Below are positions 1 through 531 of a DNA stretch of 531 nucleotides, piece by piece; position 1 is the stretch's first letter, and each line of letters opens with the position of its first letter. Source of the DNA: Escherichia coli (lineage in GTDB: Bacteria; Pseudomonadota; Gammaproteobacteria; Enterobacterales; Enterobacteriaceae); NCBI RefSeq assembly GCF_003334335.1, contig NZ_QOWQ01000174.1; one strand, written 5' to 3'. The position numbers were made by a program, and so were the translations under genes. The notes beneath the pieces are model-generated. The model was given only the letters and a program-made list of their open reading frames with translations. It did no database searches and had not been told where the DNA came from.

Positions 1-45
1 CCCGTTGCTGAAAAAGAAAGCATCAGGCGATTAGCAGGGTATCAG

Positions 46-132
46 TTACCCGTTGAAATTTTTAAATACCTCACAATTCAGGCGGTTGACTGTTGTCTGG
101 TTTGCGGGGAGTTTGTTAAAAGAAACTGGCAT
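46..132 (-). CDS. Candidate small ORF (28 aa, MPVSFNKLPANQTTVNRLNCEVFKNFNG) with a strong SD
   Basis: On the - strand: SD AGGGGGA (145->139), 6-nt spacer, ATG (132->130), stop TAA (48->46). Spacing and SD strength are good, but the peptide is short, has no recognisable family features, and I see no clear promoter. Confidence 0.2.
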   Translation of the reverse strand: MPVSFNKLPANQTTVNRLNCEVFKNFNG

Positions 133-140
133 GGTGAATC

Positions 141-157
141 CCCCTGTGCGGAGGGGC
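141..157. repeat. GC-rich palindromic 17-mer CCCCTGTGCGGAGGGGC, copy 1 of 2
   Basis: 15 of 17 positions identical to 277-293 (CCCCTCTCCGGAGGGGC), which forms the + terminator stem. Both copies are self-complementary hairpins. Confidence 0.4.
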
Positions 158-206
158 AATCAGCAACTGGTGTTTTGTCACCGACCCTTATCCTTTCTGT
201 GCGGGT

Positions 207-530
207 TCAGGTGCTGATACTGAACTCACCGGGAGGCACCCGGCACCATGCAATGGCACATAGCGCCACTCTCCAGCCCCTCTCCGGAGGGGCTTTCTTA
301 TGGACAAAAAAAGCCCGCGCTGGGAGACGCGGGCGGCAAGGAATAAACAACAAAACGTGAAGTAATATTTCAGCTGGCGAATAATATCCGACAGTAATCA
401 CTCTGCGCAATAGCGCGGCCTTTTTCGTATTGCGGGCTGTAGTCTTCCTCCTGCCATTGTCCTGTAACTTCCGGACTTCAGCCCGTTCCCTCATCTGACT
501 CACAACATTATCCCGACCGGGAGGATTCAT
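207..530 (-). CDS. Hypothetical ORF (107 aa) from the six-frame track; doubtful as a full-length gene
   Basis: Open frame from ATG 530-528 to TGA 209-207. The N-terminal ~55 codons (530 to ~365) are basic and protein-like (MNPPGRDNVVSQMRERAEVRKLQDNGRRKTTARNTKKAALLRR...). The frame then runs through the - strand terminator (334-304) and the + strand terminator hairpin before reaching a stop, and it is antisense to the + ORF. Its RBS would lie outside the window. Confidence 0.2.
   Translation of the reverse strand: MNPPGRDNVVSQMRERAEVRKLQDNGRRKTTARNTKKAALLRRVITVGYYSPAEILLHVLLFIPCRPRLPARAFFVHKKAPPERGWRVALCAIAWCRVPPGEFSIST
275..300 (+). terminator. Rho-independent (intrinsic) terminator, + strand
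   Basis: Stem 275-282 AGCCCCTC pairs with 287-294 GAGGGGCT (8 bp, 6 G:C), tetraloop TCCG 283-286, followed by T-rich tail TTTCTTA 294-300. Sequence downstream of the same hairpin on the - strand is not T-rich, so the orientation is +. Confidence 0.6.
277..293. repeat. GC-rich palindromic 17-mer CCCCTCTCCGGAGGGGC, copy 2 of 2 (coincides with the + terminator stem)
   Basis: 15 of 17 positions identical to 141-157. Confidence 0.4.
304..334 (-). terminator. Rho-independent (intrinsic) terminator, - strand
   Basis: Stem 313-319 GCCCGCG pairs with 328-334 CGCGGGC (7 bp, all G:C or C:G), 8-nt loop 320-327. On the + strand it is preceded by A7 (306-312), so on the - strand the transcript reads GCCCGCG-UCUCCCAG-CGCGGGC-UUUUUUU-GU. 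Downstream on the + strand (GGCAAGGAATAAAC) is not U-rich. Confidence 0.7.
304..380 (-). ncRNA. Candidate small RNA on the - strand ending at the - terminator; 5' end undefined
   Basis: On the - strand a U-rich stretch (CUUCACGUUUUGUUGUUUAUUCCUUGCC, about 362->335) directly precedes the terminator hairpin with U7. This resembles the 3' module of Hfq-dependent sRNAs. A weak promoter-like pair lies upstream on the - strand: TTGCGC (410->405), 18-bp spacer, TATTAT (386->381). Confidence 0.25.
519..528 (+). promoter_or_regulatory. Shine-Dalgarno / ribosome-binding site for a + strand gene starting at the right edge
   Basis: GGGAGGA at 519-525, a near-consensus SD, then spacer TTC and ATG at 529-531. 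If the true start is the first codon beyond the window, the spacer is 6 nt, which is also well placed. Confidence 0.45.
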
Positions 531-531
531 G
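529..531 (+). CDS. Possible start codon of a downstream + strand gene truncated by the window end; product unknown
   Basis: ATG at 529-531 lies 3 nt after the SD GGGAGGA. Only the start codon is inside the window, so no protein evidence is available. The same CATG palindrome also provides the ATG of the - strand ORF 207..530. Confidence 0.3.

Follow-up and report, generated by a model that had tools for sequence, protein, structure and literature searches.

Convergent pairs of small RNAs (sRNAs) have been described in Shiga toxin (Stx)-type prophages, in which a plus-strand sRNA of ~200 nt and an Hfq-bound RNA on the minus strand meet with back-to-back terminators between a moron coding sequence (CDS) and a phage open reading frame (ORF) (Tree et al. 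2014). Table S2 of that study lists, for the Sakai prophage Sp4, EcOnc05 on the plus strand (~222 nt by northern blot, with a peak in Hfq cross-linking and analysis of cDNA, Hfq-CRAC) and EcOnc08/EcOnc21 on the minus strand (~271 nt); for Sp5, it lists EcOnc27 (~235/247 nt), which was destabilised in a Δhfq strain. Such pairs, located next to stx and nanS-p, are medically relevant. Here, we analyzed a 531-nt stretch of Escherichia coli DNA (the window), in which a sequence-only reading had flagged an imperfect inverted repeat with an outward-facing Shine-Dalgarno (SD) sequence and ATG at each end of a ~400-bp segment. Judged by homology, the window carries a putative convergent pair of Hfq-bound sRNAs between the last moron gene and the nanS-p esterase gene, and its STnc100 sRNA (EcOnc05/27, PasD-related), convergent EcOnc08/21-type RNA, and nanS-p gene have all been described previously. 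The inverted repeat is very probably a chance, low-information complementarity between two elements, each of which is conserved for its own reasons. The repeat itself matters little, and the useful outcome is negative and clarifying: what look like divergent starts or cassette ends are a structured sRNA, read in antisense, on one side and a genuine ribosome-binding site (RBS) on the other.

Prophage DNA with 100% identity to the window occurred in many E. coli genomes, and sequence similar to it was found in 2,777 of 5,426 complete E. coli genomes. The 100% identical locus in NZ_AP022815.1 (L001) was used as the reference for annotation, with window position 529 corresponding to L001 9529. The organization of the window resembled that of the pairs reported by Tree et al. 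2014. Two RNAs of opposite orientation, homologous to EcOnc05 (+) and EcOnc08/21 (−), ended at abutting intrinsic terminators (+ 275-294; − 334->313), and these confirmed the terminator-like hairpins that had been noticed between the arms. The terminator-containing core of the flagged repeat thus appears, from its homology, to be the previously detected convergent sRNA pair.

The two arms of the inverted repeat

The letters of the repeat were as the sequence-only reading had given them. TGAATCC at 135-141 (minus-strand GGATTCA, 141->135) faces GGATTCA at 523-529, CAT at 130-132 reads as ATG on the minus strand, and ATG at 529-531 lies on the plus strand. The G-rich flanks are TCCCCCT at 139-145 (minus-strand AGGGGGA) and GGGAGGA at 519-525. 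A repeat finder joined these elements as pair I3, with arms at 135-151 and 513-529 (17 nt, 13/17 or 76% complementary), between which only 7 bases form an exact match. The features on which the arms lie are as follows.

100-305, plus strand: sRNA of the STnc100 family (Rfam RF02076), homologue of EcOnc05 (Sakai Sp4) and EcOnc27 (Sp5), PasD-related; identified by cmscan
129-136, plus strand: 5' strand of closing stem P1, GCAUGGUG, pairing with CACCAUGC at 244-251; from the Rfam structure line, RNAalifold pairs 1-8/124-131, and minimum free energy partners
135-151, plus strand: left arm of I3, comprising the P1 end, the AAU junction, the C-rich P2 5' strand, and the P2 loop, and running two bases (GG, 150-151) into the P2 3' strand
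275-300, plus strand: intrinsic terminator of STnc100, AGCCCCTCTCCGGAGGGGCT, followed by a T-rich tail; from a terminator scan
513-529, plus strand: right arm of I3, comprising the nanS-p SD GGGAGGA (519-525) and the spacer, and ending on the first base of the start codon
529-531, plus strand: start codon of a SASA-family (NanS-p-type) sialate O-acetylesterase gene; CDS L001 9529-11511 in the Prokaryotic Genome Annotation Pipeline (PGAP) annotation

The left arm lies within STnc100. The cmscan match covered the full model (1-206 of 206) and scored 143.2 bits (E=1e-33), where the gathering score is 47, and STnc100 was present in at least one copy at the same place in 16/16 comparison loci. Sakai Sp4 was 92% identical to window 59-531, which placed the EcOnc05 Hfq-CRAC peak at window ~161-284 (+). 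By homology with EcOnc05 and EcOnc27 of Sakai, the STnc100 copy of the window would be a discrete Hfq-associated transcript. A sigma-70 consensus scan of the plus strand found no promoter for STnc100. Compared with the known STnc100 sRNA (EcOnc27/EcOnc05 of Sakai, homologous to PasD of enteropathogenic E. coli), the window copy matched over the full length and had the same multi-stem fold, with P1, P2, a variable arm, P4, P5, and the terminator. As elsewhere, it followed moron genes (stx2B in 933W and Sp5) and stood directly upstream of a sialate esterase gene. However, it differed from other copies in having its own allele of the variable arm and linker, and TerB and DUF3927 genes, rather than stx, lay upstream.

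To define the structural position of the left arm, a consensus fold was computed with RNAalifold from 62 unique STnc100 copies. Double-sided changes were seen in 7 of the 35 consensus pairs. Covariation was clear in P4 (pair 84/105 was GC in 45 sequences and AU in 17, and a change from AU to GC occurred in 5) and was also present in P1, and the terminator stem was kept, with 7 compensated sequences at pair 168/192. The 5' strand of P1 (129-136) includes the left-hand CAT together with the first two bases of the left arm. The CAT forms P1 pairs 2-4/128-130 and was invariant and paired in this set, while the neighboring pair 6/126 was GC in 54, GU in 7, and AU in 1, and pair 1/131 was GC in 46 and GU in 16. 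Positions 137-139 (AAU) form the junction, and 140-144 (CCCCC) form the 5' strand of hairpin P2. Because of this fold, the apparent minus-strand SD, AGGGGGA, is the complement of the P2 strand, and the apparent ATG is the complement of a P1 triplet.

The right arm is the true RBS and start of nanS-p. A family domain begins at the N terminus of the predicted protein (DUF1737 at residues 3-50, model 1-53 of 53, followed by SASA at 83-276; both from Pfam), and GGGAGGA ends 3 nt before the ATG. The leader was conserved as tatcccgRccGGGAGGAttcATG, and ATG[AG]CATTT was kept in 175 copies. The leader at 403-531 was 91% identical to that of the 933W nanS-p gene (the ORF similar to YjhS; a prophage 9-O-acetyl sialate esterase), whereas other nanS-p alleles with the same STnc100 upstream had other leaders, namely GGAATA-ATG, GGTGGAAAGAACC-ATG, and GGCAGGAGAGGTT-ATG.

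We then compared the repeat with the level expected by chance. The window contained 25 exact 7-mer inverted pairs, compared with 11.5 ± 4.2 in dinucleotide shuffles, and 7 pairs of 17-nt arms with at least 13 complementary positions, compared with 2.1 ± 2.5; 2 of 40 shuffles reached 7. The RNA hairpins account for this excess over the shuffles. Within the window, I3 was surpassed by at least two further inverted repeats, for example I2 (308-321/412-425, 14 nt, 93%), and the I3 match is statistically unremarkable. A G-rich flank is present at each arm because the right one is an SD sequence and the left one is the complement of a C-rich RNA stem. A G-rich RBS is always partly complementary to a C-rich stem strand, and a further AAUC/GAUU match of four bases lengthens the exact core to 7 bp. 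Chance had been one of the explanations offered in the sequence-only reading, and it is the one favored by the many inverted pairs, the better repeats, and the separate explanation of each arm. Most of the outcomes named there as refuting were observed: no inversion or indel polymorphism was seen at the repeat, and the small minus-strand ORF was unconserved. The arms, however, are both conserved, each for a local reason.

Several further repeats touch these two elements. An exact 9-nt direct repeat, ACCGGGAGG, occurs at 228-236 (5' strand and loop of STnc100 hairpin P5, with an SD-like GGGAGG) and at 516-524 (the nanS-p RBS), and STnc100 carries both an SD-like and an anti-SD-like element. In addition, the P2 hairpin (141-157) and the terminator hairpin (277-293) of STnc100 are 88% identical direct repeats, CCCCTGTGCGGAGGGGC and CCCCTCTCCGGAGGGGC.

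Inheritance of the arms and proposed RNA pairing

To examine whether the arms are inherited as a pair, STnc100 copies were gathered from viral contigs with a 23-nt anchor in the 3' block of the RNA, which excludes both arms (n=138). The left-arm segment GCATGGTGAATCCCCCTG was identical in 131 of the 138 copies. The downstream sequence was readable for 124 copies and fell into the following types.

GGATTC-ATG right arm (GGATTCATG): 57/124 (46%)
GGAATA-ATG (GGAATAATG): 17/124
two unrelated esterase leaders: 32/124
no esterase start within 1.4 kb: 18/124

Whatever lies downstream, the left arm is thus conserved, being identical in nearly all copies. Rare substitutions in the left arm of these copies were accompanied by no compensating change in the right arm. 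In the reverse test, which started from 134 right-arm copies, the left arm was found upstream on the same strand in 128, at a distance of 360-400 nt (~870-880 nt where STnc100 was tandemly duplicated). Of the six exceptions, one was explained by an artefact of the Tn5 mosaic end, and the others had a variant STnc100. In the artefact (L204, an IMG/VR contig), the 5' end of STnc100, ~387 nt upstream of the nanS start, is replaced by GTGTATAAGAGACAG, the Tn5/Nextera mosaic end, a sign that the contig comes from a transposon-insertion mutant or is contaminated with adapter sequence.

Viewed from the right arm, the linkage amounts to ordinary synteny, and we infer that there is no selection on the complementarity of the arms itself. 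Two points weigh against this conclusion. The right-arm type of nanS leader almost always had STnc100 360-400 nt upstream (128/134), although plain synteny predicts this equally well. Moreover, both arms are nearly invariant, so that covariation cannot formally exclude a constraint on pairing.

Because the arms share one strand, their RNA copies are complementary, and a functional pairing was considered in which the junction/P2 strand of STnc100, AAUCCCCCU (137-145), acts as an anti-SD seed on the nanS-p RBS, GGGAGGAUU (519-527). Such pairing would tune esterase translation and could take place either in trans, in lysogens, or in cis, within the late transcript made under Q antitermination. 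STnc100 homologues bind Hfq, EcOnc27 was destabilised in the Δhfq strain, and STnc100 stands upstream of the right-arm leader type in the 128 of 134 copies given above. Two energetic results also speak for pairing and against a chance match. The raw arm-arm duplex (−17.5 kcal/mol) was the best among 24 RBSs in the prophage stretch, with one unrelated gene at −17.1, and ViennaRNA left 137-143 largely unpaired in the STnc100 variant of the window, so that a short seed between AAUCCCCCU and GGGAGGAUU is physically possible. However, in a fold of 100-570 the arm-arm pair probability in cis was 0.0 at 17/17 positions, and a local CCCG/GGGA hairpin took up part of the nanS-p SD instead. When the opening energies were included (sRNA +13.1, target +6.7), the net energy in trans was +2.3 kcal/mol, and the nanS-p RBS fell to 7th of the 24. 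For the duplex with the whole sRNA, 35% of shuffled targets were at least as good.

The population data pointed the same way. The left arm was unchanged in the 54% of copies in which the downstream RBS was different or absent, and no compensatory change was seen. The C-run is a paired strand of P2 in both Rfam and the RNAalifold consensus, and any C-rich stem matches any SD sequence. Neither covariation nor a favorable accessibility-corrected energy was obtained for the anti-SD pairing. A functional complementarity of the two arms is therefore quite unlikely, and it is very unlikely that AAUCCCCCU of STnc100 is a real anti-SD seed pairing with the nanS-p RBS GGGAGGAUU. If it were, STnc100 would gain its first target, the phage sialate esterase immediately downstream, and sRNA expression in the lysogen would be linked to translation of the esterase.

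Minus-strand reading frames and the cassette proposal

The sequence-only reading had offered two other explanations for the repeat, namely related divergent gene starts and the boundaries of a small cassette. For the former, the arms would mark two genes with related initiation regions, nanS-p to the right and a small protein of 28 aa (or 37 aa) to the left. The rightward start is that of the annotated SASA/NanS-p esterase. On the minus strand, AGGGGGA is followed after 6 nt by ATG and a 28-codon ORF, which exists at 46..132 as had been listed. The first 25 residues of this ORF matched phrog_27294 (E=2e-14); gene callers have thus called the ORF in phage genomes.

However, the leftward start lies inside STnc100, where its ATG is stem P1, and its SD stem P2, read as the complement. 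The conservation check proposed for the small ORF gave lengths of 5, 10, 13, 16, 17, 28, 33, or 59 aa across copies, and the sequences were unrelated past the first few residues, which are fixed by the RNA. The 59-aa form that defines the PHROG profile runs antisense into tRNA-Arg (L016 1395-1574, compared with the tRNA at 1389-1465), the 25 shared residues coincide with DNA-level identity of the region upstream of STnc100, and an NCBIfam search of all small ORFs gave no match. The best explanation for the profile phrog_27294 is that conserved DNA without coding function has repeatedly been called as an ORF. Of the divergent starts, only the esterase start stood; the reading as a whole is largely refuted, and two genuine divergent genes at the arms are highly improbable.

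A second minus-strand frame, of 107 aa at 207..530, matched phrog_31368 and was rejected as a gene. It is frameshifted compared with the majority of alleles, has in-frame stops in others, and crosses the minus-strand terminator, and it showed no real codon periodicity (0.138/0.116/0.159). Its identity with iraM, which occupies the same place in L007, L008, and L012, was also considered and rejected, since it matched no iraM family in either library. Both phrog_27294 and phrog_31368 are probably spurious as protein families and reflect conserved genes for non-coding RNAs. Read in antisense, C-rich RNA stems resemble an SD followed by an ATG, and such shadows are already in the records as these two profiles and as PGAP pseudo-CDS over STnc100. 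Hypothetical or pseudo-CDS were annotated antisense to STnc100 and the nanS leader at L002 3119-3259, L008 1619-1744, and L016 1561-1686 (−), and at L005 1517-1947.

For the cassette, the repeat would form the ends of an invertible or mobile ~400-bp segment (133-528) that flips or is excised by site-specific recombination. The imperfect 17-nt inverted repeat does bracket a segment with two convergent terminators, and the region as a whole is a mosaic in which iraM, tandem STnc100 copies, and sRNA alleles are among the elements present at some loci and absent from others. There is a superficial likeness to the Hin/Gin/Cin segments and fimS, limited to a short inverted repeat around a few hundred bases with regulatory signals. 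Following the comparison across related genomes that had been suggested, we constructed the junction expected for an inversion of 133-528 and searched for it in the 5,426 complete E. coli genomes. The junction was found in none, while 2,228 records matched either half. An inverted left arm was likewise found in 0 of the 134 right-arm copies from viral contigs, and the arms were collinear in 128/128 linked copies.

The module boundaries in the BLAST matches lay at ~296-305 and ~403, not at 133 and 528. Many records matched only 1-294/301 (the STnc100 block), and Stx1 phages matched mainly 403-531 (the nanS leader). The annotation within ±9 kb lists 36 features, none of them an invertase, integrase, or transposase, and the exact match between the arms is limited to 7 bases. 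Thus, unlike Hin/Gin/Cin and fimS, the window had no annotated recombinase nearby, no orientation polymorphism, and no junction in the genomes searched, and its arms are inherited independently. The claim that the arms are cassette boundaries is rejected: it is already refuted at the population level, and a recombining 133-528 segment is extremely improbable.

What does vary is a swappable slot between ~301 and 403. This slot held the minus-strand RNA of the window type, AsxR, an AgvB/EcOnc03-type RNA, a fourth allele, iraM on the minus strand, or a second STnc100. The anti-adaptor gene iraM was found there on the minus strand at L007 1830-2165, L008 1815-2150, and L012 2283-2618. The presence of iraM in some prophages shows that the slot can take up protein-coding morons and not only sRNAs.

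The STnc100 gene showed variation of its own, with invariant 5' and 3' blocks around several unrelated alleles of the central arm and the pre-terminator linker. This pattern of blocks and alleles points to recombination inside the sRNA gene. Tandem arrays of two or three diverged STnc100 copies were present at L002 3100-3792, L012 1600-2257, and L064, and also in L022, L071, L151, L223, and L227; L064 had three matches to the 3'-block anchor, at 5116, 7346, and 7856.

The convergent minus-strand RNA and its genomic setting

The remaining features of the window are as follows.

1-34, plus strand: 3' end of a DUF3927-family CDS, the last moron gene downstream of Q/PR', the tRNA genes, and TerB; annotated at L001 8870-9034, ending at window 34
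306-334, minus strand: intrinsic terminator of the minus-strand RNA, GCCCGCGTCTCCCAGCGCGGGC followed by T7, abutting the STnc100 terminator; from a terminator scan (hairpin 334->313)
308-471, minus strand: body of the minus-strand RNA, putatively Hfq-bound and homologous to Sakai Sp4 EcOnc08/EcOnc21; coordinates of Table S2 in Tree et al. 2014 mapped via the 92% Sp4 alignment
403-425, plus strand: conserved hairpin and T-run (CTGCGCAATAGCGCGG CCTTTTT), start of the nanS-p leader module; from the terminator scan, the repeat finder, and the BLAST module boundary at 403
507-531 and 4 nt beyond the window, minus strand: candidate sigma-70 promoter with −35 ATGTCA (535->530), a 17-nt spacer, and −10 GATAAT (512->507); from a consensus scan

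The Hfq-binding peaks of EcOnc08 and EcOnc21, mapped onto the minus strand, fell at window ~308-380 and ~386-471, respectively. The minus-strand terminator has 8 pairs, 7 of which are G-C, and a literature search for its sequence found no paper containing it. Beyond the terminator, the fold of the minus-strand RNA (500->303) was not unusually structured (z = −0.71). The minus-strand RNA could be assigned to no Rfam family. Weak Rfam matches in 275-487 (snoZ13, OmrA-B, anti-hemB, Leu leader, suhB, and SgrS) were dismissed, being far below the gathering scores and driven by the terminator hairpins.

The homologous minus-strand slot directly 3' of STnc100 holds AsxR in 933W and AgvB in YYZ-2008. 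The families of these two RNAs, RF02702 and RF02703, gave no match in the window even at E≤1, whereas both were detected in 933W and YYZ-2008. Membership of the anti-sRNA family (AgvB/AsxR/EcOnc03; 51-60 nt, with a conserved 3' region of ~42 nt) was therefore rejected; the terminator and core differ from the published sequences. Unlike AsxR and AgvB, which are anti-sRNAs of 51-60 nt, the minus-strand RNA of the window is of the EcOnc08/21 type, which measured ~271 nt in the northern blot, and it lacks their ~42-nt conserved 3' region (GUAUCUCAUGC...GCCCGAACCCACUCGGGC). A GU-rich stretch of the minus-strand RNA, UUUUGUUGUUUAUU (356->343), recalls the R1 seed of GcvB; it varies among alleles, with ACAACAA, ACAATAA, or ACAATGA on the plus strand.

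The candidate promoter corresponds to L001 9507-9535 (−35 at L001 9535->9530) and overlaps the nanS-p start. Its spacer (529->513) coincides exactly with the right arm of the repeat. It was the only promoter-like match in L001 8950-9750, compared with a shuffle mean of 0.3, and its −10 reads GATAGT in about one-quarter of the alleles. On this sequence match, it could drive the EcOnc21/08-type RNA. The RNA would then start near 500 and be ~195 nt long, which does not agree with the northern band of ~271 nt; to reach ~271 nt, the RNA would have to begin near 576 and would then be antisense to the entire initiation region of nanS-p.

The leader hairpin at 403-425 was kept in 10 of 11 aligned loci and was degraded in L013. 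The I2 repeat joins the 3' half of the minus-strand terminator (308-321) with this hairpin (412-425), and on the minus-strand RNA their pairing could compete with terminator formation.

With regard to the gene location, the order in L001 is Q antiterminator, DNA methyltransferase, tRNA-Ile/Arg/Arg, TerB, DUF3927, the intergenic region of the window, SASA-family esterase, holin, and lysozyme. The RNAs of the window thus lie downstream of Q/PR', between a moron CDS and a conserved downstream phage ORF, and the window is a moron insertion site of a Stx-phage-like lambdoid prophage. In 933W, the same place holds stx2AB, followed by a nanS-p-type esterase gene. A scan of the window for tRNA and transfer-messenger RNA genes found none. 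The same prophage also carries a type I toxin-antitoxin locus, hokD/sok, at L001 3480-3654 (Rfam sok, 117.6 bits), ~5.5 kb upstream of the window.

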